From the IMG/VR virus record IMGVR_UViG_3300031248_000001: a stretch of DNA of 64,000 bases; one strand, given 5' to 3'. Shown in pieces: positions 6,072-60,329 of this stretch. The translations under genes were made by a program, and so were the position numbers. Origin of the DNA: a virus. Its lineage: Duplodnaviria; Heunggongvirae; Uroviricota; Caudoviricetes. Position 1 is the first letter of the stretch, and every line of letters begins with the position of its first letter. The notes under the pieces were generated by a model. That model made no database searches and was not told the origin of the DNA. It saw only the letters and a program-made list of their open reading frames with translations.

Positions 6072-6560
6072 TCAGGGCCGCGCCGTTAACACGTAGAAGC
6101 TGTCGTCGTCGCCCCACACCAGCGCGGTGCGCGTCCCGGCAAACGAGCCCGTTCCTGTTGCGCTACGCGGTTTCAGGTTCCCGCCCCGCCAAGCATCACC
6201 TAGACTGACCGTAAGTTGGCCCTCCGCAACTTGCAAGGTCAGGGTGCCGGCGATGACCGGAAGGCCATTGGACTTGATCTTCACGGCGGCGGCGGTTGAC
6301 TCCCACGTACCGACGACCGCGCCAGCGTGGTAGACGCTCCCCGAGTGCGCGCCGTGGTCGCCGATAGACCATCCGAAGGGCGGCGTATCGACCCAGGCGA
6401 GGTCACTTTCTACCCGGCACTCCAACACCGGTTGCGTCGGGTGAGGAAGCGCCAAATGGTTGCCGGGAGTGACGGCGAGTCCGGTTTCGGGCGCGGGCCT
6501 TACGGGCGATCCGGTGACCAGAAGTAAGAGTAAGCCGAAGACTGAATATCGCGCGAGCAT
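6072..6560 (-). CDS. secreted protein with N-terminal signal peptide (opposite-strand moron)
   Basis: ATG at 6558-6560. N-terminus MLARYSVFGLLLLLVTGSPVRPAPE is signal-peptide-like. Encoded opposite to the structural genes. Confidence 0.5.
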   Translation of the reverse strand: MLARYSVFGLLLLLVTGSPVRPAPETGLAVTPGNHLALPHPTQPVLECRVESDLAWVDTPPFGWSIGDHGAHSGSVYHAGAVVGTWESTAAAVKIKSNGLPVIAGTLTLQVAEGQLTVSLGDAWRGGNLKPRSATGTGSFAGTRTALVWGDDDSFYVLTARP

Positions 6561-6633
6561 TGGGTTGGTCCTTTTTATCAGTATGGGTTCTTGTTAGAAG
6601 ACGAACGCAGAAATCCTGCGGGAGGTTACGCAG

Positions 6634-7290
6634 ATGCCTTTCCCTATTAGCGCGGCCCTGGGAGCCGGTGGCGCCCTGTTCGGCGGCCTCTTCGGCGGGT
6701 CCGAGGAACCGTCGCTCAGCCCGCAGCAGGCCTGGGCAGCGAAGTTCCTGAAGCGCTACGCGAAGCGGATGATGCAGGAAGGGAACGCGCCGCCCCTCTC
6801 GCTCCCGCAAGAACTGCTGGGCCTGGCGAACGTGAAGGGGCTCGCGGGCGAACAGATGGGTGGCGACTACCGCAGCCTGCTTTCCGCGCTTGGGGCTCGC
6901 GGCTCGCTCGGGGACAGCAGCGCGGACGCCATCGCCTCGCTCCAGCAGTCGCAGCAGGGCCAGTTGATGAACCTGGACGCGCAGGCGCTGTTCCAATCGC
7001 TGATGTCGCGCCAGGATATGAAGGCGCGCGGTGCGGCGGCGGCCGGGCAGGTGGCCGGGATCACGCCGTCGATGCCGGGCCAACAGGGCCTGGATATGGG
7101 TTCGCTGTTCCAGGCTATCGGGCGGACCTGGGGGTATCAGCAGGGGCGGGGGAGTGCGGGCGGGAGCGCGTTCAGCCCGCCGTCGTCCTCTGTGTCGCAG
7201 GCGCGGCCGTTGACGGGAGGACCGCAAAGGCCGGGGTCGTTCATGGATGATGAGGACTACTTCTCGGACTTCCGCTACGGAGCCTTCTAA
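6634..7290 (+). CDS. hypothetical protein, putative internal virion protein (small)
   Basis: ORF preceded by GGGAGG. Gly/Gln-rich. First of three consecutive genes ending in the giant protein. Confidence 0.45.
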   Translation: MPFPISAALGAGGALFGGLFGGSEEPSLSPQQAWAAKFLKRYAKRMMQEGNAPPLSLPQELLGLANVKGLAGEQMGGDYRSLLSALGARGSLGDSSADAIASLQQSQQGQLMNLDAQALFQSLMSRQDMKARGAAAAGQVAGITPSMPGQQGLDMGSLFQAIGRTWGYQQGRGSAGGSAFSPPSSSVSQARPLTGGPQRPGSFMDDEDYFSDFRYGAF

Positions 7291-9105
7291 ATGAAGCTTC
7301 AGTTCGATCCCAGATCGGCCTTTAGCGCCCTCGTCGGTCTCTATGTCGGCACCTCGCAGGGCAAGCAAGAGTTCCGCCACGAGCGCCGGCAGGAAGACGA
7401 CCAGGCGTTCCGCGACTCGCTCCTGCTCGGGCGACTGGAGGACGAGCAGTTCGAGCGGGAGGCGGAACCGTATCGGCTCGCCGCGAGTGCGCCCGGCCAG
7501 ACCCCGGAGAGTATGCAGCAGACCTTCAAGGCGTATCAGGAGATGCAGGCGAGGCGGCCGCCCTCGGCGTCGTTGAAGGCCGCGCAGGGCGTGTTTCAGA
7601 AGCGGTATCCGGGGATGCCGTTTCCGACCGGCACGCCACCCATGGCTCCGGCGGCGGGTCAGGGCGCCCCCCTCCCCCAATTCCGAAACCCCGGCGAGGA
7701 AGAGGCGCGGGAATCGCTCTTGCTCGACTTGCGGGGGACGATCCGCAACCTGATCGACAACGGGGATGAGGCCGGGGCGCAGAAGGCGCGGGCGGTAGGG
7801 GTGCGGCTGTCCAAGCGCGAGATCACGCCGGAGCAGGCGATAGCGGAGTTGGGGACGGTGGAGCAGCAGGGACGCGTGACGGCTTCCCAGGACCGGACGC
7901 TGGAGACTGGCTTCGCGCGGCTGCAGAAGCTGCACGATGAGCAGCGGATCAAGGGCGAGGCGCTGCCGCAGGCGAAGCGCGTGCTGGCCGCCTACGCATC
8001 CGCGCCTCCGTCTGGGACCGAGCGCCGCGCCTATCTCCAGCACCTGCGGGACGAGGAGTTGGCGGGGCTGGAGTCGTCCGACTACCTGCAGATGAGCCCG
8101 GACGACCAGCAGCGGATGGAGCTGGCGAAGAGCTACGCGCAGTCGCGGGTGATGAACACGTATGAGGGGCTGCTGCGTGAGATCCCGAAGACGAAGAATG
8201 TGGCGTCCGCGCGGGACCTGGCGGGCCGGCTGTGGGCGCGGGCGAATTCCGAAGAGGGCAAGGCAGCCGGCCTCGTCGTCCCCGAAGACCTGAACCCGCT
8301 CCCCATCTACGGCGGCGAGACGCCCGAAGAGATCGACGCGCGCATCCACGCGGGGTTGGCTTCGCGGATCGAGGACACGGAAGCGAACCGAAAGGACCGC
8401 GAACGGCTGCTGACGGGCGGCGTGCGGTTCCTCGAACGGCTGCTGATGAGCGGGAAGCTCGCGGAGAAGGACCTGACGCCGGTGTTGGGGCGGCTGGAGC
8501 AGTTGTACGGCGAGGCGGGGGTGGACCTGAAGCTGCCGAAGATCAAGATCGGGGCGCTGTCCGAGGCGCAGCAGGAACAGGTGCGACAGTTCAACCGCCG
8601 GTTCATGCAGCAGGAGGCGCAGCAGAAGATCAGCCAGGGTCATCTGGAGTTGGCGCGGACGCGGGAGGCGCGGGAGCGGCAGAAGTTCGCGCTGGAGAAG
8701 CAGAGCGGGAAGTACGCCAAGAGCGCGGCGGGCGGGAAGTTGTCGGATCGGGATGAGAAGCGGTTGGCGGAGGCGCAGAAGGCGCGGAGCACGGCAGTCC
8801 GCCTTATTGACAGTATCAATCGCAAATTATTCATCGAACCAACCGACGAGACCACAAAGACCGCCGCTGAGAAGCAGTTGAAGGACGCGCAGGCGACCAT
8901 CGATGCGATTGTGGGGCCGCTGGGGGCCGAAGCGCCGCCTCCGCCGACCGGAAAGCCGGATCAGGTCCAGAAGTCCAACTATGAACGGGGGCTCGCGGCG
9001 CTCCGCGAACTGAACCAGCGTCTCCCGGCCAACAAGCAGCTGACAGAGCAACAGATGGAAGCACAGGCCCGGTCCGCTTACCCGAACACGGCCCCGAAGC
9101 GCTAG
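7291..9105 (+). CDS. coiled-coil protein, putative internal virion/ejection protein (604 aa)
   Basis: Start is adjacent to the previous stop. Highly charged, E/R/K/Q-rich coiled-coil-like sequence. Confidence 0.5.
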   Translation: MKLQFDPRSAFSALVGLYVGTSQGKQEFRHERRQEDDQAFRDSLLLGRLEDEQFEREAEPYRLAASAPGQTPESMQQTFKAYQEMQARRPPSASLKAAQGVFQKRYPGMPFPTGTPPMAPAAGQGAPLPQFRNPGEEEARESLLLDLRGTIRNLIDNGDEAGAQKARAVGVRLSKREITPEQAIAELGTVEQQGRVTASQDRTLETGFARLQKLHDEQRIKGEALPQAKRVLAAYASAPPSGTERRAYLQHLRDEELAGLESSDYLQMSPDDQQRMELAKSYAQSRVMNTYEGLLREIPKTKNVASARDLAGRLWARANSEEGKAAGLVVPEDLNPLPIYGGETPEEIDARIHAGLASRIEDTEANRKDRERLLTGGVRFLERLLMSGKLAEKDLTPVLGRLEQLYGEAGVDLKLPKIKIGALSEAQQEQVRQFNRRFMQQEAQQKISQGHLELARTREARERQKFALEKQSGKYAKSAAGGKLSDRDEKRLAEAQKARSTAVRLIDSINRKLFIEPTDETTKTAAEKQLKDAQATIDAIVGPLGAEAPPPPTGKPDQVQKSNYERGLAALRELNQRLPANKQLTEQQMEAQARSAYPNTAPKR

Positions 9106-9317
9106 GGTTCTTCGGGAACCGGCGCAGGGGGTGTTCGCGGCGGGAGCGGCTCCGTGATGTCCTGAAAACCGCGTGGGTGGTAGAGCCGCACATCCCCCGT
9201 CTTTGTGTCCAATCGGTAGATGATGGCCTCTGTGCTACCCGGAACGACTTGGTAGCGTGGTGCTTCTTGGCATCCCGCTAGTATTCCAAGCCCGAGAAGT
9301 AGTAGCAGTGATTTCAT
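9102..9317 (-). CDS. small lipoprotein (signal peptide + lipobox LAGC), candidate superinfection-exclusion moron
   Basis: ATG at 9315-9317 (MKSLLLLLGLGILAGC...), 72 aa. Encoded opposite strand between the structural genes. Confidence 0.5.
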   Translation of the reverse strand: MKSLLLLLGLGILAGCQEAPRYQVVPGSTEAIIYRLDTKTGDVRLYHPRGFQDITEPLPPRTPPAPVPEEP

Positions 9318-9369
9318 GGTCAGACTCTTCACGCATCCTCTAACGCGGATTCCTGCGCTGTAGATACGA

Positions 9370-12300
9370 ATGACACCACCGCGCACCCCAGAAGAATGGG
9401 CCGCCCAGGTCATGCGCGAACACGCGGCGGCGAACCCGGTAGTCGAAGCCGCCCGCGCCCGTGCCGGTGAAGAGTGCGGACCGCTCGGCTGTTCCCGGTT
9501 CGCTTCCCGCGCCCTCAAAGACGCCGGCTACGACTTCGCCTCCGCCTCCTCGTCTGATCTCCGCCGCCAGATCCTCGCGCGCGGTGGGCAGGAAGTCCCC
9601 GACCCCCGCGCGGGTGACCTCTTCTTCCACGTCGGCGGTCCGACCGGCTACTCTCACGTGGGCGTAGTCGGCCAGGACGAGATTATCGACGCCCCCGGCC
9701 GTAGTGCCGCCTACCGCGCCCTGGTCCGCCGGGGCGCTCCCCGCAAGCCGTCCGTCTACGTGCGGCTCCCCGAAACCCCCAACGTCTCCGTCTCCAGCAC
9801 TTCGCGTGGCGCTCTCGCCTCCCGCGGCGGCACTCCTCCGCGTACGCCCGAAGAGTGGGCGCAGCAGCAGATCGCGGCCCAGGAAGCGAAGACCCCGGAG
9901 CAGTGGGCGGCGGAAGTCATCCGGCAGCGGATGAACGAGACGGAAGATCCGCGCATCACTGCCGTCCAACGCCGTGCCCAGGCCAAGCCCGGCTACACCC
10001 AGCAAGCCGCACAGGCCCCCGCACGTCCTGCGCCTGCTCTGGGGTCGGGGAAGACCCCCCGCGATTTCATAGGCGGCGTGCCGATCTTCGGCGGGATGCT
10101 GCAGGGCGAACTGGATCGGAACGCGGCCATTGAGCGGCAGTCCGGTCAGCGGATTCGCGGGATGATGCGCGGGCCTGCCCCGGCCGCGCCCTCGATGCGC
10201 GACCTTCTCAACCGCCCCACCCCCACGCGCGCTTACATCGAAGGCTTGACCTCGCCGGGTGCGGGGCAGCGGGCGAATGCGCGGGCGGCGACCCCGGAGC
10301 GACAGCGCGAGGTGCGCTACCAGGCGACCAGGAGCGCCCAGGCGTTCAACCCGTTCACGAACGATGTGGTAAGGCCGCGGACGGAGACGGAGAAGAACCT
10401 CGCGTATGCGGAGGGGGCGTTCCTGCCGAGCGGGCAGGCGGCCAAGAACACGGCGGAAGAGGCGTGGCGGCAGGCCGTGGCCGATGAGAAGTATCCCGCG
10501 CCCCCGCAGATTCCCGCGCACAAGAAGGCCGAGTATCTGAAGAAGATCCGGGCGGCGCTGCCCGCCTACAACCGCTACGTCGATGAGCAGCAGCGGTTGC
10601 TGGATCAGGCGCGGGAAGCGAGCTTGAAGGAGTATCAGCGGCGGGCGGCGCCCCTGCACGCCAGTTTCGATACGCCGGAGCGGGCAGCGGAGTTCGACCG
10701 GCTGGATGAAGAGCGCCGGCAGCGGGACGCCCGCATCCTTAAAGGCTTCCTGGCCCGGATGGAGCCGGAAGTGGTCTTGAAGTCGATGGGGGAGCTGACC
10801 CCACTCCAGCGTCAGGCACTGGCTGCGAAGGCGGGCGCCGATGTGGTCTGGACGCTGCAGTCCCCGAACATCCTGCGGAGCTACGTGTTCGATGCCGGGG
10901 TCACGGCGGTTGCCGACCGGATCGGGGCGGCGGCGGCCGTCAAGATCTTCTCGAAGACGCCGGCCGGACAGGCGGTGGTCCGGCGCCTGATGACCGAGGG
11001 GGCGATTGCGGGTGGCATCCAGCAGCCGGCGACGCGGGCCTTCGTGGACCCGAACGCGACTCCGCAGGACCTGGCCCTGGAGGCGCTGGCGGGGACGGCG
11101 GGCGGTGCGGTGTTCGGCGGGGTGGTCGGGGCGGCGGGGAAGGGCGCGCGGGCGGTGATGGGGCCGGTGGATGTGGGGGCGGTGCCGCGCCCGAAGGCGA
11201 CGAAGGGACGCGTGCCGGTGGTGAAGCCGAAGGCGCCGGTGCAGGCCGAGGCGCAGGCCGCCCCGATACCTGCGGAAGCGCCTGTAGCGCCCGTGGTGGT
11301 GGCGAAGGCGAAGGCGGCGGCGGTAGAGCCCGAGACGCCTGCGGCACCTCTTGCGAAGGCCAAGCCCCCTATCCAGGCACGCAACAAGGCGGAACTTGCC
11401 CGCGCCCTGGTGAAGCAGGCGGGCCTTCCGCCCGAACAGGCGCGGGCCGGCGCCGAGGTCTTCGACGCCGCCGCGCAGACCGCCGCGAAGCAGCAGGGCC
11501 TGCCCGTAGAAGAACTATACGGGCGTGTGTCGTATGCGAAGGGCGGGAAGGCGGCGGAAGGGGCGCTCCAGCAAGAAGGCAAGGCCCCAATCTTTTACTC
11601 CCAGCTATCCCGCGTGGTAGACGCGAAGATGCCGAACCGCGCGCCCGTGTCGCAACTGCGCGGGCTGCTGAACGGGGCGGGGGTCAAGGCCGAGGAGTTG
11701 AAGTGGACGGGGCTGGATGAGTTCCTGGGGGAGGCGGAGAAGGCGGGGCGGCCGGTCACGAAGGCGGAAGTGCAGGAGTGGCTGCGGGGGAATGCGGTGG
11801 AGGTGAGGGAGGTAACGAAGGGGGGAAGCGACCGCGCGGAAAGGGCACTGGCGGAACTTGGCTATGAGCCGGTTTGGAACGATGGAGCCTATCGTCTGCG
11901 GGATAGGGAAGGGAACGTTTACAGCTACCACGATCAAATTGAGGCTCCTCGCGGTGAACGTGACCGCATCATCATGGCCTGGGACGATCTGAACACACAG
12001 GACGCTACCCGCAGGCAGATGGGCACGGATACGAAGTTCGGCCAGTACACCCTCCCCGGCGGGAAGAACTACCGGGAGTTGCTGCTGACGTTGCCAGAAA
12101 CACAGGCAGCCAAGAAGTACCGCGCAGTCGTGGAAGAGATTAACCGTCGCGCTGATGCTGACCCCGAGATTGCTGCGTTGCGGGCGCGAGCGAAGAGGCT
12201 TCAGGATGCGGTAGAAGGTGCTTCTGATTTGGGGCAGGCGCGGGCAGCACGAGACGCGGCAGAGAACGCGCTCATCACGCTTCGCAATGAGCGACTTGGT

Positions 12301-15300
12301 GATTTGCAGGCAGAGGCTACCCGCCTCTCGGATGAGGATGCCCGCTCACGCTACCACTCCCCCCACTGGGACGAACCCAACGTCCTCGCCCACGTCCGGT
12401 TCGATGAGCGCGTGGATGCGGACGGGAAGCGGGTCCTGCACGTCGCGGAGATCCAGAGCGACTGGCACCAAGCGGGGAGGAAGAAGGGGTATAAGGGATC
12501 GCTCCCCGAAGGGCATCGCGTCCGCGAACTGGACCCTGAATCCCAGAACTACAAAGACGGGTTCCCGTTCGTCGTAGAGGATCGCAACCACTTCCCGCTT
12601 GCCGTGGGGCGAACACCGGAACAGGCGATTCGCAACATCGCAGGCCTGGCCCCAGCCGCCCCCTTTTCCAAGACCTGGCACGAACTCGCCCTGAAGCGGT
12701 TACTAAGATTCGCTGCCGAAAACGACTTCGAGCGGGTGACGTGGGACACGGGCCTCGAAAACGTCCGTCGCTATGAGGATGAGTTCCGCAAAAACGTTGA
12801 TGAGATCCAGTGGGAGGACACCGGCAACAAGCATCACGTGCGAGCGGTCAAGGACGGCAAGGTGGTCTACGAGGATGACTTCGATCCGACTACCGGCAAG
12901 GGCACCAAGACCTTCAGGGACGAAATTCCGTCGCTCGATGAGGTGGTGGGGAAGGACATCGCTAGTCAGATCCTAGAGAGCTCGGGAAGGGCGGAAGCCA
13001 GTAACTCGGCTTCGTGGTCGGGCAAAGACCTCACCATCGGCGGCGAGGGCATGAAGGGCTTCTACGATCAGATCCTGCCCGCTGCCGCCGCGAAGCTCGG
13101 GAAGAAGTGGGGGGCGAAGGTTGGGAAAGTGCAAGTCGGGGAACGCGATTTCGTCGAGGCAGTCAAAGGGCAGTACTTCGTGCGCGGCGCGGACGGTCGC
13201 CCCTACGGCGGCGGACTTTCGCGTGCGGAAGCCGAAGGATTGGCCCTCCGTGTAGGCGGCGACGTAGTGCCTGAACAGGCACCGGCCCGTCGTTTTGTAG
13301 ACGCCCACTCCCTCGACATCACCCCCGAAATGCGCCGCTCCGTCCTCACAGAAGGCCAACCCCTCTTCCAATCCACCAAGGCCTCCGTCGAATTCACCGA
13401 AACCAACGACGCCTTAATCCGTTTCTTCAAAGGCGCCGACCTCTCGTCTGCCCTGCACGAACACGGCCACGTCTTCCGCCGCTGGCTGCCCGAAGCCGAC
13501 CAGGCTATCGCCGCCGAGTGGGCGGGCGCCACGGATGGGAACTGGACGCGCCCGGCCGAAGAGAAGTTCGCGCGCGGCTTCGAACGCTACCTGCGGGACG
13601 GGAAGGCGCCGACCCCCGAGCTCAAGCAGGTGTTCGCGAAGGTGCGCGAGTGGCTGATCGGCATCTACCGGCGCATCAAGGGCAGCGATATCGATGTGGA
13701 AGTCTCGCCGGAGATGCGGGACTTGTTCGATAGGATGCTCGGTGGGGAGGGCGCGCTGGCGAAGAAGGTGGCCAGGGAGGCAAAGAAGCCGGGGCCGGAG
13801 TATGCCGCGTCGATCAATCTCGACAAGATTAACGCGCCCGAACCGCTGAAGGACCTGATCCGCGAGACGGCGGAAGCGAACGACCAGTGGCAGGCGCAGC
13901 GGCGCGGGACGAAGACCTGGGAAGAGACGCAGAAGCGGGCTAAGGAGTTGATCCGCACGGGCGTTATCACGCCCGAGTCCCTGAAGGGGGTCAAGCGTGG
14001 CACGGCCCTGAATGCGGAAGAGGTGCAGGCGGTGGCTACCCTGCACGTCCGCATGGGTGACGAGGTGCTGCAGGCGCGGAATGCCTACGAGGCGCACCCG
14101 ACCCCGGAGAACGAGGCTGCCGTCATCGCAGCGATCTCGCGGTTCGGGGTCGTAGAACGCACGCTGGCCGGAGCATCGTCGGAAGCGGGCCGGGCGCTGA
14201 ACATCCATCGGCTGGTCAAGGAGACGTATCAGGGGGTCGTGGGGACGGCGGAGCGGATGTTCGGCGAGGGGAAGGGGGAACCAGCGCGGAAGGCACGGCG
14301 ACCCGCCGATAAGCCGTTCACCGGGGAGCGGAACAAGGACTTCACGCCCGCACGCGCGAATGCGGCGCGCGACCGGCTGCAGAAGTTGGCGGGGATCGGC
14401 AAGGGGAAGGGGGAGCCCGAGGGGCCGCTGCGACAAGAGGCGATGACGCCGGAGGAGCGGGCGGCGGCCAAGCTGTTCGCGGAGAACCTGCCTGACCTCC
14501 GCGAGCTCGGCGGCTTCTACGTGGAGACTTACTTCCGCGATGAGGGAGTGCCGATCAACTTCCGCGAGTGGTCCGGCTTGATGCAGAAGGACCTGGGCGG
14601 GACTTTCACGGAGCCGCAACTGCGAACGCTCTGGGACCGCTACCTGAAGCCGGAGGCCGTGCAGCGGGCGAAGAGCCGCGTTACGCGGGACAAGGCGACG
14701 GAGAAGGTGCTGGAGGCGCTGGGCGGGAAGGACGCGCCGGAGGAGGTGCTTCGCAAGCTCGCCGCCTTCACCCCCGACGACACGGTAGGGCTGACCCAGT
14801 TCCTCCGTTCGCAGCAGCAGTGGACGTTCGCGGACCGGATGCACGCCTACTGGACGGCGAACATCCTCTCCGGGGTCCGCACGCAGGGGCGAAACATCGC
14901 CTCGAACGCCATCTTCGGGATCACGCAGATGCCCGTGCGGGCCGTGGCGGGCGCCGTGGACTTCGTAGCGACGGCGGGAGGGAAGGTTGGGGAGCGGCAG
15001 ATTTACGCTTCGGAGGCGCTTCCCGCCGCCGTGGGCTACCTGCGCGGGATGCCGGCAGGGTTCCGCAAGGCGGCGTACATCCTGCAGCACGGGTTCGGGA
15101 TCGAGGATGCCGGGAAGTTGGAGTTTCCGAACGTGCCCGAGTTCCGGGGCGGGGCGGCCAATCCGTGGAACCAGGTCGGTCGGATGCTCTCCGCGGCGGA
15201 CGCGCTTTTCAAGTCGATGTCCTACGAATCGGAACTCCACGCGCTGGCGACCCGGCAGGCGCTTCGGGAGGGACTGAAGGGGAAGGCGCTGAGCGAGCGC

Positions 15301-16542
15301 GTGACGGATCTGCTGCTGGCCGCTCCCGAGGCGCTCGTAGAGGGGGCGCAGAAGCGCGCGGGGTATGACACGTTCACGAGCGATCCGGACGCGGTAACGC
15401 GGCTCTTGATCGGCGTGCGGAACACGCGGGTCGGCGGGCTGCAGCCGGTCCGCTTCATCATGCCGTTCATGAACACCCCCGCCAACATCCTGAAGCGGTC
15501 TTTCGAGTTCAGCCCCGGCGGCGCGGCGCACGGCCTGGCGCTTCTGGCGAAGAAGGACCCCGAAGCGGCGCTGGTGACGGCGCGCGGGCTGGTCGGCAGC
15601 GCGGTGCTCGTCTACGCAGCGTCCCTGGCAGCGGGCGACAATCTGACGGGCGCGGCCCCGCAAGGAGATCGGGAGAAGGCGGAGTTCTACCGGCTCGGGA
15701 AGCAGCCGTATTCCGTGAAGGTGGGCGGGAAGTGGATGGACTACCGGACGCTCGGCCCCCTGGCCTTCCCGTTCGTGGTGGCAGCCGCCTTCCACGACGC
15801 TTACACGCGGGAGAAGAAGATCCCTGACAGCCAGCGGATCAGCGAGGCCGCGGGGGCGCTGGGGAAGTCCATCGTGGATCAGACCTTCTTTAAGGGCCTT
15901 TCCGATCTGGTGGAGGCGATAGAGAACCCGGGTCGCGCAGGCGGAAACCTGGTCGGCAACGTCGCTGGCGGGTTCGTCCCCCTCTCCGGCCTCGCCCGCA
16001 ACATCGCCCAATCTCAGGACCCGTACGTGCGCGACCCGCAGGGCATTTACGAACGCATCATCAAGGACCTGCCGTTGGTGTCGGGGCGAGTACCGGCACG
16101 GGTAGGGGCGCTAGGTGAAGACCTGCGCCGTCAGGGGAGTGAAGGGCTCCTCGCGCTTTCGCCTTCCGGGGTCTCGCCGGAGACTAAAGACCCGGTGAAC
16201 CGTGAGTTGGCCCGGCTTGGAGTGCGGCCCGGCCTGCCCGGCGATACGCTGACGATCCGCGGTGAGAAGACGAAACTGGAGCGCGATGTGGCGCGGGCTT
16301 ACAAGCAGATACCGGGGCGGCTGATCCGGCAGGAGATTGCGCGGCAGATCGGGACGCCGGGTTATGGGAAGGCGTCGGATGAGGCGCGGCAGAAAGCGTT
16401 GGAACGGCTTATCTCGCACCGGCGGAACCAGGCACAGGAGTTGGTGCGGGCGGCCTTGGCGGCGAAGCGCGATCCCGTGGTGCTGCTGCAGCGGTGGTAC
16501 GACGCGCAGGCACGGAACCTACCGGCGCTTCCCGAACAGTAG
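9370..16542 (+). CDS. giant multidomain virion-associated/polyvalent-like protein (2390 aa): N-terminal CHAP/NlpC-P60-like Cys-His peptidase, Ala/Pro/Lys linkers, internal HExxH zincin-like motif
   Basis: N-terminus has CGPLGCSRFASRALKDAGYDF...FHVGGPTGYSHVGVV. The motif TPPRTPEEWA occurs twice. Motif ALHEHGHVFRRW (HExxH). One uninterrupted ORF. Confidence 0.8.
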   Translation: MTPPRTPEEWAAQVMREHAAANPVVEAARARAGEECGPLGCSRFASRALKDAGYDFASASSSDLRRQILARGGQEVPDPRAGDLFFHVGGPTGYSHVGVVGQDEIIDAPGRSAAYRALVRRGAPRKPSVYVRLPETPNVSVSSTSRGALASRGGTPPRTPEEWAQQQIAAQEAKTPEQWAAEVIRQRMNETEDPRITAVQRRAQAKPGYTQQAAQAPARPAPALGSGKTPRDFIGGVPIFGGMLQGELDRNAAIERQSGQRIRGMMRGPAPAAPSMRDLLNRPTPTRAYIEGLTSPGAGQRANARAATPERQREVRYQATRSAQAFNPFTNDVVRPRTETEKNLAYAEGAFLPSGQAAKNTAEEAWRQAVADEKYPAPPQIPAHKKAEYLKKIRAALPAYNRYVDEQQRLLDQAREASLKEYQRRAAPLHASFDTPERAAEFDRLDEERRQRDARILKGFLARMEPEVVLKSMGELTPLQRQALAAKAGADVVWTLQSPNILRSYVFDAGVTAVADRIGAAAAVKIFSKTPAGQAVVRRLMTEGAIAGGIQQPATRAFVDPNATPQDLALEALAGTAGGAVFGGVVGAAGKGARAVMGPVDVGAVPRPKATKGRVPVVKPKAPVQAEAQAAPIPAEAPVAPVVVAKAKAAAVEPETPAAPLAKAKPPIQARNKAELARALVKQAGLPPEQARAGAEVFDAAAQTAAKQQGLPVEELYGRVSYAKGGKAAEGALQQEGKAPIFYSQLSRVVDAKMPNRAPVSQLRGLLNGAGVKAEELKWTGLDEFLGEAEKAGRPVTKAEVQEWLRGNAVEVREVTKGGSDRAERALAELGYEPVWNDGAYRLRDREGNVYSYHDQIEAPRGERDRIIMAWDDLNTQDATRRQMGTDTKFGQYTLPGGKNYRELLLTLPETQAAKKYRAVVEEINRRADADPEIAALRARAKRLQDAVEGASDLGQARAARDAAENALITLRNERLGDLQAEATRLSDEDARSRYHSPHWDEPNVLAHVRFDERVDADGKRVLHVAEIQSDWHQAGRKKGYKGSLPEGHRVRELDPESQNYKDGFPFVVEDRNHFPLAVGRTPEQAIRNIAGLAPAAPFSKTWHELALKRLLRFAAENDFERVTWDTGLENVRRYEDEFRKNVDEIQWEDTGNKHHVRAVKDGKVVYEDDFDPTTGKGTKTFRDEIPSLDEVVGKDIASQILESSGRAEASNSASWSGKDLTIGGEGMKGFYDQILPAAAAKLGKKWGAKVGKVQVGERDFVEAVKGQYFVRGADGRPYGGGLSRAEAEGLALRVGGDVVPEQAPARRFVDAHSLDITPEMRRSVLTEGQPLFQSTKASVEFTETNDALIRFFKGADLSSALHEHGHVFRRWLPEADQAIAAEWAGATDGNWTRPAEEKFARGFERYLRDGKAPTPELKQVFAKVREWLIGIYRRIKGSDIDVEVSPEMRDLFDRMLGGEGALAKKVAREAKKPGPEYAASINLDKINAPEPLKDLIRETAEANDQWQAQRRGTKTWEETQKRAKELIRTGVITPESLKGVKRGTALNAEEVQAVATLHVRMGDEVLQARNAYEAHPTPENEAAVIAAISRFGVVERTLAGASSEAGRALNIHRLVKETYQGVVGTAERMFGEGKGEPARKARRPADKPFTGERNKDFTPARANAARDRLQKLAGIGKGKGEPEGPLRQEAMTPEERAAAKLFAENLPDLRELGGFYVETYFRDEGVPINFREWSGLMQKDLGGTFTEPQLRTLWDRYLKPEAVQRAKSRVTRDKATEKVLEALGGKDAPEEVLRKLAAFTPDDTVGLTQFLRSQQQWTFADRMHAYWTANILSGVRTQGRNIASNAIFGITQMPVRAVAGAVDFVATAGGKVGERQIYASEALPAAVGYLRGMPAGFRKAAYILQHGFGIEDAGKLEFPNVPEFRGGAANPWNQVGRMLSAADALFKSMSYESELHALATRQALREGLKGKALSERVTDLLLAAPEALVEGAQKRAGYDTFTSDPDAVTRLLIGVRNTRVGGLQPVRFIMPFMNTPANILKRSFEFSPGGAAHGLALLAKKDPEAALVTARGLVGSAVLVYAASLAAGDNLTGAAPQGDREKAEFYRLGKQPYSVKVGGKWMDYRTLGPLAFPFVVAAAFHDAYTREKKIPDSQRISEAAGALGKSIVDQTFFKGLSDLVEAIENPGRAGGNLVGNVAGGFVPLSGLARNIAQSQDPYVRDPQGIYERIIKDLPLVSGRVPARVGALGEDLRRQGSEGLLALSPSGVSPETKDPVNRELARLGVRPGLPGDTLTIRGEKTKLERDVARAYKQIPGRLIRQEIARQIGTPGYGKASDEARQKALERLISHRRNQAQELVRAALAAKRDPVVLLQRWYDAQARNLPALPEQ

Positions 16543-18383: not shown

Positions 18384-19268
18384 CTACTCCTTCGTCATCA
18401 GTGATCGCACGTCAACGATGTTGCCGCCGCTAGAGCCGACCACAGGCAGTTTGCCGTCCCACTTCTCGATCCACTCGCGAGCCAGCACCTTTGCCCCGCC
18501 CTGACTATTGAGCGCTGCCGCCCGCACGCGATGTGATTCAGCCTCGCCCTTCGCCTTAGCGATGGCGGTCTCGGCTTCCATCTTGGCCTTCGATAGCACG
18601 TACCGCTGCTTTTCGCTTTCCTGCTGGGCGACCTGCTTTTGCTCGATGGCCTTGTTGAACTCGTCGGAGAAGTCGAAGTTGGTGAGGCTTACGCCGCCGG
18701 GCTCGACCGCGATGTTGTAGACGGCGAGGCGCTGGGTAAGGCTCGTGTCCACAGACGCTTTGACCTGCTCGCGGTTGCGGATCAGTTCCTCAGCGGTGTA
18801 GCGGCTCACGACCGCCTTTAGTGTTTCCTGCACGGCGGGTTGGATCACGCGGGCATCGTAGCCAATGCCGACCGTCTTATAGAGCGCCCCCACCTGCGCC
18901 GGGTCCAGATGGAAGTTGATCGCTACGTCAGTGTGGACGATCTGCAGGTCCTTGCTCGCGGCCTGTGCCTTGGCGTCGGAACGCTGCGTGCGAACCTCCA
19001 TGCGTTCTACGCCCTGCATAACCGGCATGATGAAGTGCGCCCCTTCCGAAAGCACCCCCTTGACCGCCCCGAACTGCAGCAGCACGCCGCGATGGCCCGC
19101 CGGGATGCCGACGTAACTCGCCAGCGGTATCCCGATGAGTAGCAGTGCCACGCCGCCCGCTGCGAGGCCGCCCTTGAGCCTCCGGTAGTGCTGACCGTCG
19201 ATCTCCTGCGGGAACGCGATGCCCGCCACGACCAGTAAGACCCCTGCCACCATCAACAGTATGCCCAT
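18384..19268 (-). CDS. SPFH/band-7 (prohibitin/HflC-like) membrane protein
   Basis: N-terminal TM helices followed by a PHB domain (…HFIMPVMQGVERMEVRTQRSD…TAEELIRNREQVKASV…) and a coiled-coil C-terminus. AAAGGA precedes the ATG. Confidence 0.85.
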   Translation of the reverse strand: MGILLMVAGVLLVVAGIAFPQEIDGQHYRRLKGGLAAGGVALLLIGIPLASYVGIPAGHRGVLLQFGAVKGVLSEGAHFIMPVMQGVERMEVRTQRSDAKAQAASKDLQIVHTDVAINFHLDPAQVGALYKTVGIGYDARVIQPAVQETLKAVVSRYTAEELIRNREQVKASVDTSLTQRLAVYNIAVEPGGVSLTNFDFSDEFNKAIEQKQVAQQESEKQRYVLSKAKMEAETAIAKAKGEAESHRVRAAALNSQGGAKVLAREWIEKWDGKLPVVGSSGGNIVDVRSLMTKE

Positions 19269-25155: not shown

Positions 25156-26658
25156 TTAAACCCGCCACACGATCTCCAGGTCGTACCGCCCGCGCTCCGG
25201 GTAGGTCGTCAGTCGGATTCGCTCGATCAGCGCCGCGCACGCTTCCTGCCGCGCCAGCGGGTCCGGACCCGCCCCTAGCGCTTCTCTGACCGCCCGCGCC
25301 AATTCCGCCCGCTCCAGCCCCCGCTCCTCCGGTTCCTCTCCCTCTAGCGCCGCCCAGCGCTCCGTCAACAGGGCTTGCTCCGCCTGCACCTCCGCGAGCT
25401 GCCGGTCCAACTCCGCCTCCGTAATGACGCCGCGCCGGTAAAGGGACAGGACCCGCTCTCGTTCCCCGGACTTCGCGTCGATCCGCGCCCGCAGCACCTC
25501 GCGCTCCCTCGCCCGCTCCGCTTCCTGCACCCGCCGACTTTCCGCCTGCCCCGCCAGGCTGGCGTCCACCGCCTCCTCCGTCCGCAGCCACGCCTCGACT
25601 TCCTGCCAGACCGCCTCCTCGATCCGTTCCGCGGCCACCAGCTTCCCCGCGCATTTCGGCCGGTAGCGCCAGCCGTGGCACATATAATAATGGTAGCCCG
25701 AGGTTTGCGGCCAGCCGTGGTAGCGCCGACCGCAGGCGCCGCAGACGAGCAGGCCCCGGAGCAGATAGATGCGTTCGTTCGGACGGGTGCGCGGGCTCCG
25801 GTTCCGCACGAGCACGGCCTGGACCGCCGCCCAGGTCCGGTCATCCACGAGCGCCGGGCACGCCTGCTCTACACCTCTCCGCAGGCGCACCCCCTTGTAC
25901 GTGGTATTCCGGAGAATCTGCCGCACCGTGTTCGGCTGCCAGCGCCCGGAGTAGGGGCGGCCGGTGCGGTAGTGGGTGACGGCACGACCCGCCCAGGCCG
26001 TGGGGACGGCGAGCGCGTTGAGGTAGTCGGCGAGCTTGATGCAGCTCCAGCCCTGGGCCGCCAACTCGAACAGCCCCCGGACGATCCGAGCCTCCTCCTC
26101 GCAAGGCACGATATAGGAGCCGGTCTCCCGCACCTCCACTGCATACCCGTAAGGGGGCCGCGCGCCACCCATCCAGCGTGCCGGCTCCGCGTGCGCCCGG
26201 TGCATCCCTGCCCGGACCCGCTCCGCTATCGAGTCGCGCTCCCAGGCGGAGACGACGGCCAGGAAGCCGATCATCGCCCGGCCACTCGGAGAGGTGGAGT
26301 CGAAAGATTCCGTCACGGAGACGACCGCGCAGCCTGCCTCCGCCAGCGCGTGGATCGCGTTATGCGTCACGCGGATGTCGCGCCCGAGCCGGTCCAACCG
26401 ATACAGATAGACGGTGGTGATGCGGCCGGCACGGGCGGCGGCCAGGAGCGCCGCGCCGCCAGGTCGTCGTTCGAGCGGGATGGTGCCGGAGATTCCGTCA
26501 TCGAGGAACGTCTCCGCAAAGGTGAGCCCGCGCAGGGTGGCGTAGCGGCGGGCTTCGTCTATCTGCGTGTTGATGGTCTGGCGTTCGGCCTGCTCCGTGC
26601 TGGAGACACGGGCATAGAGCGCGTCACTCCCCCCGCCAGACCCGCACGGCCCGCTCAT
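25156..26658 (-). CDS. large serine recombinase (phage integrase)
   Basis: N-terminal resolvase domain (ALYARVSSTEQ…RLDRLGRD), recombinase domain, Cys-rich zinc ribbon and coiled-coil C-terminus; 500 aa. Confidence 0.9.
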   Translation of the reverse strand: MSGPCGSGGGSDALYARVSSTEQAERQTINTQIDEARRYATLRGLTFAETFLDDGISGTIPLERRPGGAALLAAARAGRITTVYLYRLDRLGRDIRVTHNAIHALAEAGCAVVSVTESFDSTSPSGRAMIGFLAVVSAWERDSIAERVRAGMHRAHAEPARWMGGARPPYGYAVEVRETGSYIVPCEEEARIVRGLFELAAQGWSCIKLADYLNALAVPTAWAGRAVTHYRTGRPYSGRWQPNTVRQILRNTTYKGVRLRRGVEQACPALVDDRTWAAVQAVLVRNRSPRTRPNERIYLLRGLLVCGACGRRYHGWPQTSGYHYYMCHGWRYRPKCAGKLVAAERIEEAVWQEVEAWLRTEEAVDASLAGQAESRRVQEAERAREREVLRARIDAKSGERERVLSLYRRGVITEAELDRQLAEVQAEQALLTERWAALEGEEPEERGLERAELARAVREALGAGPDPLARQEACAALIERIRLTTYPERGRYDLEIVWRV

Positions 26659-54114: not shown

Positions 54115-54547
54115 GTGGTCGGATAGTGAGAAGGCCACGGCGCTCGCGGCCCTGGATGCGAATGGGGGGAACGTCTCCCATACTGCCCGGCAGCTTGGTA
54201 TCCCCCGGATGACCCTCGCGGATTGGGCCGCTGGCCGGGTGACGGACGATGTGACGGAACTCCGTCAAGAGAAAAAAGAGAGCTTGGCAGACGCCTTCGA
54301 AGCGCTGGCCCGCAAGCTCGTGGCGGGGGTTGGAGTGTGGGTCGACCAACGGTTAGAGGAAGGCTGCAACCCGGCGACGGTGGGGACCACGCTCGGTATC
54401 GTAGTGGACAAGATGCAGCTTCTCCGCGGTGACCCCACCCATATCGCCGGGCAGGCTGGTATGCCGCCGCGCCGCCTGGACGGCATCATTGAGCAACTTG
54501 GGGGAGATCGGCGGGAAGAAGAATGCACCCCGCAACCTACGCCTTGA
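54101..54547 (+). CDS. terminase small subunit (putative)
   Basis: N-terminal HTH (GNVSHTARQLGIPRMTLADW). Lies immediately upstream of and overlapping the large terminase gene. Confidence 0.5.
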   Translation: MARREWSDSEKATALAALDANGGNVSHTARQLGIPRMTLADWAAGRVTDDVTELRQEKKESLADAFEALARKLVAGVGVWVDQRLEEGCNPATVGTTLGIVVDKMQLLRGDPTHIAGQAGMPPRRLDGIIEQLGGDRREEECTPQPTP

Positions 54548-56748
54548 ACGAGGAAACACTCCTCGACCTTGCGATCCGGGCAAAGTCACTCCCGTTTGAG
54601 CAGCAGGAACGAATTGCGGTAGAGCTGGAGGCGCTGATCCCGCTGGCCAAGTTCGGCCCACGTTGGCTGCGAGGGACAGCGCCGAAGACCTGGCGCTGGG
54701 AATGGGAATACCAGCAGCGCATCTATCAGGCGTTGGATCGGATCACCCGTGGCGAATGCCGGCGGATGATGCTGTTCGTCCCGCCCCGGCACACCAAGAC
54801 GGAGACGGTCACGGTCCGCTACAGCGCGTGGCGGATAGAGCGTGAGCCGACTGAACGGGTCATCGTCGCCGCTTACAATCAGGACCAAGCGAACCTCTAC
54901 GCACGGAAGATCCGCCGCATTGTGCAGGCGCGGGTGCCGCTGGCGAAGGACTCGAAGCGCGTAGACGAGTGGGAGACCGCGGAAGGCGGGGGGTTGATCG
55001 CCAGAGGCGTTGGCGCGGGCGTAACCGGCCGCGGCGGTAATCTCATCGTCATCGATGACCCGGTGAAGTCACGTGAGGAAGCCGACTCCGACGCCTACCG
55101 GGAACGGTGCTGGGACTGGTATACAAACGACCTGTGGACCCGCCAGGAGCCCGGCTGCGCGATTCTGCTGATCCTGACCCGCTGGCACGAAGACGACCTC
55201 GCCGGTCGGCTCCTGCAAGCGCAGAAGGACGGCGGGGAGTTCGCCGAGCAGTGGGAGGTGTTGAACTTCCCGGCACTCGCGGAAGAGAACGATCCGCTGG
55301 GCAGAGAGCCTGGCGAGGCGCTGTGTCCGGAGCGGTTCGATGAGCACGGCCTGCAGGTAGCGAAGACGGTCCTCGGGCGCAACTTTTACGCGCTCTACCA
55401 GGGGCGACCGCAGGCGGCGGAAGGCGCGATCTTCAAGCAGTCGTGGTTCCGCTACCACACGGAAGAGGGCGCGTTCTACGTCCTGCATCACCCGGATGGG
55501 AAGCAGGAGCGGGTAAGGAAGGCCGACTGCTGGCGGTTCGCTACCGGCGACTTCGCGGCGAGTGAGAAGACGAACGCGGACTGGACGGTGGTGCCCGTGT
55601 GGGCAGTCACTCCGCGCCGACAGCGGTTGCTGCTTGACGTGCTGCGGGAGCGCTGGGAAGGCCCAGAGGCGAAGGGCCTGGTACGGACCGCGTTCACCAA
55701 GCACAACCTTTCCTCGTTCGTGGTGGAACGGAACGGGCTCGCCCTGCCGATGGTGCAAGACCTGCTCCGCGAAGGCTACCCGGTCCGCGGCGTGGTCGTG
55801 CATCGCGATAAGGTAGCGAGAGCACAGGGCAGCGCCGCTTACTACGAGGCGGGCCTGGTCTATCACGCGCAGGGCGCGGCGTGGCTGGATGCGTGGGAAG
55901 CGGAGCACCTGACGTTTCCGAACGGCGCCCACGACGACCAGGTGGATACCGGCTCCCTCGCTGCTGAATCGATTAAGCCCGGTATGGAGATCATCAGCGA
56001 ATTCTACGAACCGCTCCACGTCGCCCACGACCCGCTGGAGATCGACCCCGCCCTCCCGCTCCTCTGCGGCTGGTGCTTCGATCCCTACCCGGCCTGGATC
56101 ATCGGCCAGCTCGACGCGACAGGGGCCGGCCGCGAGGGGACGGGTCAATACCGGGTGCTGGCGTGTGCGGTAGGTGGGCCGGAAGAGGGCGCGTATACGT
56201 TCGCGGAACGTATCCTGCACCTGCTGCGGCGGCAGGGACTCGACCCGGCGGCGCTGGACCTGCGGCATTTCGCGCACCCGCGGCACTGCGGCGTCAAGGG
56301 GCATGCCGGGCGGAATATGGATGCGTGGATGCAGTTGGCGACCGGGGTGCCGGCCGTGGTCGGGTATGATGAGCGGCGGCGACCGGAGAAGAATGGTAGG
56401 GCGGCATTAGGGGTGCGGTTGATCCCTGGGGACCCGGACCGCCACACGCGGGACGAGGCGCTGCGCGGGCGGCTCAAGACGTTGGAGAGAGGGATACCCG
56501 CTTTGGCGGTGGACCCCGGCTGTCGGCCGTTGATCGCGGCGCTTACCGGCGGCTACTGCTGGAAGGTGCAGGTGAGCACGGGGCTGCCGACGGGCGAGGT
56601 GGACCCGAACCCGAGCAGTGCGCTGGTGGAGGCGCTCACCGTGAGTTTGGGCGGGTTGTATGCCGGGGCGCCGCGGCCGGATGAGGATGAGGGCTGGGGG
56701 CCGGTTGGGACGGCGAGTGGGGCCGGTAGACGAAGGGAACGGGTATGA
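54523..56748 (+). CDS. terminase large subunit
   Basis: Motifs FVPPRHTKT, LIVIDDP, TRWHEDDL; 741 aa. Confidence 0.85.
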   Translation: MHPATYALNEETLLDLAIRAKSLPFEQQERIAVELEALIPLAKFGPRWLRGTAPKTWRWEWEYQQRIYQALDRITRGECRRMMLFVPPRHTKTETVTVRYSAWRIEREPTERVIVAAYNQDQANLYARKIRRIVQARVPLAKDSKRVDEWETAEGGGLIARGVGAGVTGRGGNLIVIDDPVKSREEADSDAYRERCWDWYTNDLWTRQEPGCAILLILTRWHEDDLAGRLLQAQKDGGEFAEQWEVLNFPALAEENDPLGREPGEALCPERFDEHGLQVAKTVLGRNFYALYQGRPQAAEGAIFKQSWFRYHTEEGAFYVLHHPDGKQERVRKADCWRFATGDFAASEKTNADWTVVPVWAVTPRRQRLLLDVLRERWEGPEAKGLVRTAFTKHNLSSFVVERNGLALPMVQDLLREGYPVRGVVVHRDKVARAQGSAAYYEAGLVYHAQGAAWLDAWEAEHLTFPNGAHDDQVDTGSLAAESIKPGMEIISEFYEPLHVAHDPLEIDPALPLLCGWCFDPYPAWIIGQLDATGAGREGTGQYRVLACAVGGPEEGAYTFAERILHLLRRQGLDPAALDLRHFAHPRHCGVKGHAGRNMDAWMQLATGVPAVVGYDERRRPEKNGRAALGVRLIPGDPDRHTRDEALRGRLKTLERGIPALAVDPGCRPLIAALTGGYCWKVQVSTGLPTGEVDPNPSSALVEALTVSLGGLYAGAPRPDEDEGWGPVGTASGAGRRRERV

Positions 56749-57071
56749 GCGTCAAGCGGATAGCTACGTGCGATGGGTGCGGCGTGCGGAAGATCGAAAA
56801 CGAGCCGAAGGAGCCGGAGCCGAACATCGAGCGGTTCACCTTCAAGCACGTGCAGGGCGCGCTGGGCGTGGTGCAGGTAGACCTGTGCCGCCCGTGCCTG
56901 GAGGCAGAGCAGGAGCGGCTGCAGCAGAGTATCGTAGGAAGGCGGCTGATCATTCACGCGCGCGCGGGAGTGTTCACTGCGCCTGTAGCGCCCAAACCTC
57001 AACCACAGCCAGACCCGCTGCCTTATCGTGGGGGTCCTTGGCCGGGCTTCCTCCCGCTCAAGAGCCAATGA
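56745..57071 (+). CDS. Cys-containing small protein
   Basis: CDGCG…CRPC. Confidence 0.45.
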   Translation: MSVKRIATCDGCGVRKIENEPKEPEPNIERFTFKHVQGALGVVQVDLCRPCLEAEQERLQQSIVGRRLIIHARAGVFTAPVAPKPQPQPDPLPYRGGPWPGFLPLKSQ

Positions 57072-57889
57072 TCCAGCCCCTCGCCTCCCGCTACTACGTC
57101 CGCCTCCTGCCCCCACCCGCCGAGACCGCTTCCGGCATCGCGATCCCCGAGACGGCCCAGGAGCCGGTGTTCGATGCCGAGGTGCTGGGTGCGGGGCCGG
57201 GCAGCGTCTTGCCGAGCGGGGCAACCTACCCGATGCAGGCGCGGGTAGGTGATCGGGTGGTGTTCGAGCGGCGGGACTGGATGCCGTATGAGGATGGGGC
57301 GGGCTTCATCGCCGACTCCCGCCTCGTCGCCGTCATCCCTGGCCCGCGACACGCCCTGATGCGCCCGGCCAACGACTACGCGTTCGTGGAACCGGAGAAT
57401 ACCGGGTGGCTAGTGGAGAGCGAGGGCGGCGTGCTCGTGGCGGCCTACTCGCTGGCCGGTGCGGACGCGCGGAGACTGCGCCAGGGCGACGAGCTGTATG
57501 CGGAGTTGCAGACGCTGGAGCATACGGAGCGGTATCGGAACGCGTCCACGGAGTACGAGCAGCATCGGGTGGTGTGGGATTGGCTGGATGGGAAGACGCC
57601 CGGCGAGCAGAGCGCCGTGTATGAGGCGTGGGAGCGGAACGGGAAGCCGAGCCGCTGGCGGTCACGCGTGCTCTACGTCCGACCGCATCAGGCGAAGTCC
57701 GGCCGCGTGCTGGATGTGGGGCCGGGCCGCGTGAACCGGGCAGGCGAGTGGGAATACCTGTTTGGGGACCTGGGGCCGGGTGCGCGGGTCTGGTTTGAGG
57801 ATGCGTACCAGGCGGTGTCGCTGACGGTGGATGGTCGGCGGTGCCTGGCTATCCGGGCAAGGTTCTTGGTGGCGGTCCAAGATGAGTGA
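57068..57889 (+). CDS. GroES (Cpn10)-like domain protein with C-terminal extension
   Basis: The N-terminal ~95 aa align to GroES: PLASRYYVRLLPPPAETASGIAIPETAQE…AEVLGAGPG…VGDRVVF. Confidence 0.45.
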   Translation: MIQPLASRYYVRLLPPPAETASGIAIPETAQEPVFDAEVLGAGPGSVLPSGATYPMQARVGDRVVFERRDWMPYEDGAGFIADSRLVAVIPGPRHALMRPANDYAFVEPENTGWLVESEGGVLVAAYSLAGADARRLRQGDELYAELQTLEHTERYRNASTEYEQHRVVWDWLDGKTPGEQSAVYEAWERNGKPSRWRSRVLYVRPHQAKSGRVLDVGPGRVNRAGEWEYLFGDLGPGARVWFEDAYQAVSLTVDGRRCLAIRARFLVAVQDE

Positions 57890-59843: not shown

Positions 59844-60329
59844 CTAGTACTCAGAAGGGCTCGAAGCCAAAGCCGAAGACTCGGAAAACCTCCCGTTGAG
59901 GGTCAGTATCCGTTCTCGGAGCACGTCCCGCCGCTGCAACAGTTCGCTATCCACACGCCAGTACTTAGGCCTGCCTTTGTTCGGAGTTCGTGTTTCGGCG
60001 AGTTCTAGGACGAGTTGCGCTTGTTCGCGTTTGATGATCAGGTAAGGCAGAATAGCCCGAATAAGGGCTAGCATTCGGTTGTTGGTCCATCGAAGCCTAA
60101 AGATCGGCTTCCCGATGGTCCGCTGTGGGTTTTGCCGTATAGATGGAAAGAGTGAGTCGAGAGCATCTAGCGCGGCCTTCGACGTGTTGGTAAAGACAAC
60201 ATAACCTTCATGGCACGGTGACCGCCCGCACCGGCTCCTGCGGAGCCCGATACCAATGTTGCCTTCGGCGTCAATCATTGCTGCTACGTAAGCGAGTTGG
60301 GCTTCTCTCGGCCAGGTTTGAATGTCCAT
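59844..60329 (-). CDS. LAGLIDADG-family homing endonuclease (free-standing, low-GC island, opposite strand)
   Basis: LAYVAAMIDAEGNIGI motif. GC ~52-55%. Confidence 0.65.
   Translation of the reverse strand: MDIQTWPREAQLAYVAAMIDAEGNIGIGLRRSRCGRSPCHEGYVVFTNTSKAALDALDSLFPSIRQNPQRTIGKPIFRLRWTNNRMLALIRAILPYLIIKREQAQLVLELAETRTPNKGRPKYWRVDSELLQRRDVLRERILTLNGRFSESSALASSPSEY

Follow-up and report, generated by a model that had tools for sequence, protein, structure and literature searches.

The ejection cassettes of short-tailed phages comprise a gp14-like protein of ~200 amino acids (aa), a gp15-like protein of 431-982 aa and a gp16-like protein of 609-1337 aa, and many ejection-protein assignments within them rest on size and synteny (PMC8954989, 2022 review). 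In T7, gp16 (1318 aa) is the largest and last member of the cassette; it bears an N-terminal cell-wall hydrolase, an SLT transglycosylase, and its C-terminal part has been proposed to insert into a membrane. A second literature, usually kept apart from the first, describes the polyvalent proteins, giant polypeptides, encoded with the late virion genes, that gather unrelated enzymatic-looking domains and a zincin hub and include a peptidoglycan-attacking domain (Iyer, Burroughs, Anand, de Souza, & Aravind, 2017; PMC5512222). The main text of that study mentions neither gp16 nor "internal virion" proteins. One protein that stands close to both literatures is gp47 of the Stx phage phi24B, a 2811-aa polyvalent protein with a metallopeptidase domain that proteomics detected in virions and for which an ejection role has been proposed (bioRxiv 10.64898/2026.04.10.717836). 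The gene considered here lies at 9370..16542 (+) in a 64,000-nucleotide stretch of tailed-phage DNA (Caudoviricetes; IMG/VR record IMGVR_UViG_3300031248_000001), referred to in its whole length as the window, and encodes a protein of 2390 aa.

We consider it probable that this giant protein is a polyvalent internal virion protein in the gp16-like place of a temperate, probably short-tailed phage, with a peptidase at its N-terminus and cargo in two central modules, A and B. It is an example of a recognised class, that of polyvalent proteins and podophage ejection proteins, and not a new kind of system. Like the polyvalent proteins, it is a giant polypeptide of unrelated, enzymatic-looking domains with a zincin-like element, a candidate peptidoglycan-attacking domain and a location among late virion genes. 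Its significance lies in joining the two literatures, for here the third and largest gene in ejection position would be the cargo vehicle. Three of its large conserved modules, predicted to be GNAT-fold, zincin-like and C-terminal internal-virion in kind (the last with ~28,000 cluster representatives), lie outside curated libraries. Defining them would improve the annotation of many giant "hypothetical" phage proteins and offer targets for the study of injected proteins.

The giant gene and its modules

The open reading frame (ORF) starts with an ATG at position 9370, the first start codon after a stop, so that an earlier start is ruled out, and runs for 2390 codons and a stop. Its GC content by codon position (0.71/0.49/0.82) is typical of a true coding frame in high-GC DNA. 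ENA records an identical protein, P0001, on a 31.8-kb metagenome contig, on which the same 218-aa and 604-aa genes flank the giant gene; there it is called from Met15. A search of ~5.8 billion proteins returned 105 matches, namely P0001 and 104 others of 1400-4167 aa, while megablast of the gene against the INPHARED phages gave no match. The ORF is thus a real gene, as an earlier note made from the letters of the window alone had held when it described a single 2390-aa ORF here.

Mapped onto the query, the matches resolve the protein into five separable modules with independent phyletic distributions: an N-terminal papain-fold-like domain (N), the GNAT-fold module A, the zincin-like module B, the helical module C and the internal-virion module D (Table 1). 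The first 240 residues are common to the closest homolog, P0002, only, and aa 240-700 are an unshared linker. Module A (aa 735-1335) recurs in ~40 of the matches, B (1336-1470) in ~55, C (1475-1620) in ~14 and D (1760-2370) in ~28. Counted by combination, B alone occurs in 38 homologs, A alone in 22, CD in 12, AB and D alone in 8 each, BD in 4, BA in 2 and the complete series NABCD in 1. Such recurrence in varied combinations, and even in differing order, indicates domain shuffling, a hallmark of the polyvalent class. Consistent with this, many of the 104 homologs carry Pfam domains diagnostic of that class, including ART-PolyVal, DdrB-ParB, InPase, LPD1/5/22/38/39, RadC, GGDEF, RelA-SpoT, an SNF2-type helicase, SLT, M23 and SNase; the polyvalent accessions among them are PF18760, PF18763, PF18823, PF18834, PF18857, PF18796 and PF04002. 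The earlier note's view of the protein as a polyvalent effector that would be injected agrees well with this make-up of the family.

Unlike members of the class, the window protein itself matches no Pfam polyvalent-protein model (MPTase-PolyVal, LPD families) in any of its own modules at E <=10. Pfam scans of the whole protein and of six segments gave sub-threshold NlpC/P60 and CHAP matches only, NCBIfam gave no match, and sequence searches of the PDB with the whole protein, its N-terminal 170 aa and the profiles A1, A2 and A3 came back empty. The likeness to phi24B gp47 is one of reported features, as the domains reported there (LPD5, LPD1, LPD38 and MuF-C) differ from those of the window protein.

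P0002 is encoded at 10001-18649 of L001, a 66-kb Logan contig that is the closest relative. It is 490 aa longer than the window protein and has a Topoisom_I match (PF01028). About 450 residues separate its C- and D-matching regions, compared with the ~140-aa linker (aa 1620-1760) of the window protein. If the Topoisom_I match were located between these two regions, it would represent cargo swapping within one lineage.

The C-terminal module and the ejection-protein position

Searched by tblastn, module D matches genes of marine T7-like phages that carry the annotation internal virion protein (D), namely those of Roseobacter CRP-804, Pelagibacter HTVC025P, Synechococcus Syn5 (gp45) and S-TIP28, and Desulfovibrio ProddE. 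When a profile of 25 module D sequences was compared by hhalign with CRP-804 gp34 (1217 aa), it aligned to aa 607-1172 with probability 100 and E 4e-46; the C-terminal ~570 aa of this protein and of Syn5 gp45, both of which occupy the gp16 position, are homologous to module D. CRP-804 belongs to the Autographiviridae, and its gp34 gene is preceded by those for tail tubular proteins A and B and by three ORFs of smaller size. These proteins are about half the size of the window protein; BLASTP against CRP-804 gp34 finds module D only, and no Pfam domain was found in gp34. The module is widespread, its profile matching 28,193 cluster representatives of 1.84 billion, 19,374 of them at E <=1e-30. 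In the matches listed it sits at or near the C-terminal end of proteins of roughly 500-6000 aa, which makes it a constant C-terminal unit attached to highly variable N-terminal cargo.

Its AlphaFold2 (AF2) model is confident and all-alpha (pLDDT 79, pTM 0.73), and Foldseek against the PDB returned chance-level transporter matches only. Two candidate identities were rejected at this sensitivity: T7 gp16, with an hhalign probability of 0.4, and MuF, with a probability of 0.2 against Mu gp30, a single-sequence template that limits sensitivity. Since no similarity to T7 gp16 is detectable, the gp16-like link is positional and annotation-based, and "internal virion protein D" is to be read as a positional name.

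The genes around it fit that position. Upstream of the giant gene stand a gene for a tail-like protein with a fibronectin type III (fn3) domain and then genes of 883, 440, 218 and 604 aa; in L001 the order is 880/260/223/615 aa followed by a 2882-aa giant. Genes common to the two are 37-60% identical, and L001 encodes SU10-type podophage adaptor domains. The 218/604/2390-aa cassette has its small, medium and largest members in that order next to tail genes, the last being 1.8x longer than the largest gp16 homolog of the 2022 review (1337 aa). Placement of the gene after the 218-aa and 604-aa genes in a tail and ejection block, proposed in the earlier note, is borne out by this synteny. Its comparison with T7 gp14/gp15/gp16 holds in layout and in the homology of module D to an Autographiviridae protein, and does not extend to sequence similarity with T7. 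BLASTP of the 218-aa and 604-aa proteins as counterparts of those of T7, BPP-1 or CRP-804 gave nothing.

A small/medium/giant series is likewise seen in an Autographiviridae phage and in Bordetella phage BPP-1. In the latter, the tail genes are followed by those for the "internal virion protein" Bbp12 (231 aa), the SLT protein Bbp11 (720 aa) and Bbp10 (2052 aa). Bbp10, itself polyvalent, has a module B that is 37% identical over its aa 784-931, together with LPD22 and a PBECR1 nuclease; BLASTP finds module B only, with no match to module A or D. The wall hydrolase of BPP-1, an SLT domain, is on the preceding Bbp11 and not on the giant Bbp10. In T7 gp16 the hydrolase is N-terminal on the largest and last member, as is the putative one of the window protein, but it is a transglycosylase there and papain-fold-like here. 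The hydrophobic helix of module D (aa 2066-2084) could be a counterpart of the proposed membrane-inserting part of T7 gp16; the basic C-terminal tail of T7 gp16 is absent from the window protein.

The N-terminal domain and modules A and B

In a module B alignment of 51 sequences, the motif HEHGH is nearly invariant where the residues are present: H1363 is conserved in 47/48, E1364 in 48/48 and H1367 in 48/49. Downstream, hE.FARgFE.YL.EGkAP, with E1398 and E1405, is kept in >=80% of the 51 sequences. In the AF2 model, short strands precede the HEHGH helix, which is followed by a second helix bearing the glutamates. This predicted arrangement of an HExxH helix, a Glu-bearing second helix and a preceding small beta-sheet fits the MPTase zincins, the minimal zincin architecture of polyvalent-protein metallopeptidases, for which autoprocessing or attack on host proteins has been proposed (PMC5512222). 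Besides BPP-1 Bbp10, module B occurs in podophages of Caulobacter, Xanthomonas and Pseudomonas. It is distinct from MuF_C (PF18819), which in P0058 and P0093 sits just upstream of the region that matches module B.

Module A spans roughly 600 aa. Although its sequences are just 30-47% identical, ~20 of its polar and glycine positions are invariant or nearly so, with R1010, E1027, Q1029, S1030, D1031, Y1232 and D1233 among the polar ones in its core. The conserved stretches read NYRELLLTLP, HxxEPNVLAHVRF, ExQSDWHQxGRKxGY, VPDAPFxxTW, KRMxRxAAExG and GGEGMKGFYDxILP. The AF2 model has the features of a GNAT fold, making module A a candidate acyl-transfer or ligand-binding effector. The assignment is one of predicted fold: no Acetyltransf family was found among 23 module A members, no PDB chain was matched by the A3 profile at E <=10, and Foldseek against the PDB gave nothing significant for either AF2 model. 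The predicted beta4-alpha3 junction reads VPDAPFxxTW, and the sole loose candidate for an acetyl-CoA loop is GRKxGY at aa 1036-1041. Nor is the module recognisably either of the RimI-like GNAT families of PMC5512222.

At the N-terminus, Pfam aligned aa 39-112 with NLPC_P60 (E 0.0011-0.0035; 17.7-19.4 bits against a curated cut-off of 23) and with CHAP (E 0.005-0.011; 16.7-17.8 bits against 26). In P0002 the corresponding end gives independent matches to CHAP (E 4e-4, 21.2 bits) and NLPC_P60 (E 0.011, 16.2 bits), again sub-threshold. On inspection, GPLGC41SRF, GDLFFH...SH96VGVV and IID106AP follow the Cys/His/polar order of the family and are kept in P0002. The only two cysteines among the 2390 residues, C36 and C41, both fall in this domain. 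A papain-fold peptidoglycan peptidase is likely here but not established. The NlpC/P60 family is absent from the main text of PMC5512222, whose peptidoglycan section names other enzymes.

The domain is bracketed by a short repeated motif, TPPRTPEEWA, with one exact copy before it, a second after it and a degenerate third beyond that (Table 1). Over 16 codons the two exact copies are identical at 28/48 nucleotides and differ at almost every synonymous site; because the copies use different codons, it is the peptide itself that is conserved and under selection. The conservation of the first copy supports the start at 9370 over Met15, the start called in ENA, and P0002 likewise begins with a motif copy of its own. 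There the motif is another one, PEEEALxDLQxLH, in the same three places, one before and two after the peptidase-like domain. That all three copies differ together suggests that they are sites recognised in cleavage or docking, which we offer as a lead and not as a finding.

The earlier note had named three of these elements. The internal HExxH zincin motif and the repeated TPPRTPEEWA segment are present as described. Its CHAP/NlpC-P60-like Cys-His peptidase is supported in that both families match weakly here and in P0002, every score falling below threshold. The two largest conserved parts, module A with its predicted GNAT fold and the C-terminal module D, had escaped it.

Table 1. Positions of the modules, motifs and adjoining cassette genes in the window
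Feature	Position	Strand	Residues	Remarks
218-aa gene, gp14-like position	6634..7290	+		40% identical to syntenic L001 gene; N-terminal Gly-rich hydrophobic segment, aa 3-21
604-aa gene, gp15-like position	7291..9105	+		37% identical to syntenic L001 gene
Motif copy 1, TPPRTPEEWA	9373..9402	+	aa 2-11	upstream of peptidase-like domain
NlpC/P60-CHAP-like papain-fold domain	9457..9774	+	aa ~30-135	candidate triad C41/H96/D106
Motif copy 2, TPPRTPEEWA	9832..9861	+	aa 155-164
Motif copy 3, degenerate, KTPEQWAAEV	9889..9918	+	aa 174-183
Long Ala/Pro/Gly/Arg-rich low-complexity linker	9922..11571	+	aa ~185-734	P0002 alone aligns, weakly
Gly/Ala-rich hydrophobic segment, possible membrane helix	11071..11127	+	aa 568-586	LALEALAGTAGGAVFGGVV; Kyte-Doolittle (KD) mean 1.56 over 19 aa
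Module A	11572..13374	+	aa ~735-1335	~40 giant homologs; AF2 mean pLDDT 76
Predicted GNAT-fold core of module A	12046..13155	+	aa 893-1262	variable inserts
Module B, zincin-like metallopeptidase domain	13375..13779	+	aa ~1336-1470	phrog_9880 E 1e-28; ~55 homologs
HEHGH	13456..13470	+	aa 1363-1367
Module C	13792..14229	+	aa ~1475-1620	helical; usually accompanies module D (CD in 12 homologs)
Module D, all-alpha C-terminal "internal virion protein" module	14650..16479	+	aa ~1761-2370	phrog_6651 E 3e-24
Hydrophobic helix within module D	15565..15621	+	aa 2066-2084	KD 1.63; conserved GTxxxxxxxxLAxxGxxTG

A proposed mechanism, its rivals and the wider gene neighbourhood

The analysis establishes the ORF, its modular homology, the conserved motifs, the predicted folds and the synteny; from packaging and ejection to enzymatic action and any processing, the following course is one that we infer. 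Modules C and D would form a conserved "chassis" that packages the protein in the capsid with its 218-aa and 604-aa partners. At infection they would exit via the portal and tail and help to build or anchor a trans-envelope conduit for the DNA, the hydrophobic helix of module D perhaps inserting into the membrane. The N-terminal NlpC/P60-CHAP-like peptidase would cut the peptide stems of peptidoglycan locally, as a counterpart to the transglycosylase of T7 gp16. Modules A and B, the central cargo, would enter with the DNA. Module B would either divide the giant protein into its functional parts or attack proteins of the host, and the GNAT-fold module A is a candidate acyl-transfer or ligand-binding effector with a host target.

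A number of observations weigh against this account, some of them touching the virion role and others the enzymatic parts. The 218-aa, 604-aa and giant proteins have no detectable similarity to T7 gp14, gp15 and gp16, BLAST finds no similarity between CRP-804 gp34 and T7 gp16 either, and the module D model finds no significant match among solved structures, T7 ejectosome entries included. The podovirus morphology of the window phage is likewise something that we infer. Furthermore, the gene context of module D is not uniform across the family. In L008, the module-D protein (2584 aa, 7001-14755) bears an M23 peptidase, and its gene directly follows terminase and a 654-aa portal-sized gene and precedes the capsid genes, a classical MuF position, so that module-D proteins are not always part of a gp14/15/16-type cassette; another is encoded between tailspike and lysis genes and a third in a poorly annotated, prophage-like region. 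The neighbourhood in L006 is not clearly structural. The L008 arrangement would suit a packaged cargo protein that makes no channel, in which module D only docks to the capsid or portal, functionally like MuF or SPP1 gp7, and brings variable effector domains into the head, while other proteins build the conduit. The extreme variety of the N-terminal cargo that module D terminates, and its lack of a structural match to solved ejectosome proteins, point the same way. Yet module D gives an hhalign probability of only 0.2 with Mu gp30 and no Phage_Mu_F match in Pfam, it holds a conserved hydrophobic helix, and in the window, L001, BPP-1 and CRP-804 its gene follows the tail genes, where ejection proteins are encoded. 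We regard docking without a channel as unlikely.

On the enzymatic side, the NlpC/P60 and CHAP scores lie under the Pfam gathering thresholds, and a homolog search limited to aa 1-150 was empty but uninformative, as it missed even the identical protein. Neither module A nor module B has a sequence match in Pfam, NCBIfam or the PDB; the GNAT assignment comes from a single AF2 model of pTM 0.57, and the canonical Q/RxxGxG/A acetyl-CoA loop is not evident on inspection. These same facts (the sub-threshold peptidase matches, a GNAT core with neither a clear loop nor a GNAT-family sequence match, and a zincin module that fits no curated peptidase model) would be expected of an essentially structural internal core protein whose peptidase-, zincin- and GNAT-like parts are non-catalytic relics or scaffolds. 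The pattern of conservation speaks against such decay: 47-48 of 48-49 sequences retain the HExxH residues, with a further pair of conserved glutamates downstream, the sole two cysteines both fall within the peptidase-like domain, where a catalytic cysteine would be expected, and the ~20 invariant or near-invariant residues of module A form a pattern typical of active or ligand-binding sites. We regard a catalytically dead protein as quite improbable. Still harder to credit is the idea that a long-tailed phage uses the protein as a tape measure with lytic domains, even though great length, a partly helical make-up, an N-terminal wall-hydrolase-like domain and a place among tail genes would all suit one. 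Pfam and PHROGs scans found no tape-measure family, and the neighbours scanned gave no sheath, tail-tube or tail-chaperone match. The C-terminus is homologous to internal virion proteins of the Autographiviridae, which have no tape measure, L001 encodes SU10-type adaptor domains, and the protein contains folded alpha/beta modules; on the strength of the scans and the C-terminal homology, the tape-measure identity was rejected.

The polyvalent internal virion protein remains the account we favour, and it can be taken further, in a form that we find doubtful. The protein would be a self-processing polyprotein, its motif copies serving as cleavage or docking sites of its own zincin and co-evolving with it, so that the wall peptidase and module A, as a new family of GNAT-fold enzymes lacking the CoA loop, are freed after ejection to act as separate effectors; module D, as a point of its own, would be a very widespread, uncurated "universal adaptor" that loads cargo of any kind into heads.

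The rest of the window offers several observations on the phage itself. The fn3 protein upstream of the cassette (316 aa, 329-1279, +; Pfam E 2e-10) matches PHROG tail-protein families weakly and could belong to the tail or serve as a decoration protein. A minus-strand ORF of 71 aa (9102-9317), whose product bears a lipoprotein signal (MKSLLLLLGLGILAGC..., lipobox LAGC), lies in the 265 bp that separate the 604-aa and giant genes; the corresponding interval of L001 holds two small genes on the minus strand. This ORF may have been inserted in the manner of a moron, perhaps one for a lipoprotein of superinfection exclusion. Among the minus-strand genes that form a block immediately downstream of the giant gene is one for a 294-aa protein (18384-19268) that matches phrog_200, "lipoprotein", at E 3e-46, and whose identical counterpart in L005 is annotated Band_7/SPFH. 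A temperate lifestyle is suggested by a 500-aa serine recombinase homolog (25156-26658, -), 47% identical to a Resolvase/Recombinase/Zn_ribbon_recom gene of L001.

Long antisense ORFs are found in the window, among them one of 865 aa (13414-16011, -) wholly within the giant gene and one of 746 aa at 6403..8643; given the high GC content, they are best explained as a by-product and not as genes. At the far end of the window are genes for a large terminase (54523-56748, +; phrog_38, E 2e-91) and, by a weak match, for a portal-like protein (60297-62591, +; phrog_1216, E 2e-7). With these at one end and the tail and ejection genes at the other, the window looks like a nearly complete, circularly permuted genome of ~66 kb. 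Adjoining the terminase in this head-gene region, and overlapping the end of its ORF, is a gene for a 409-aa protein (56660-57889, +; phrog_3188) in which Pfam places Cpn10/GroES at aa 138-204 (E 7e-14), an unusually long, fused co-chaperonin-like protein.

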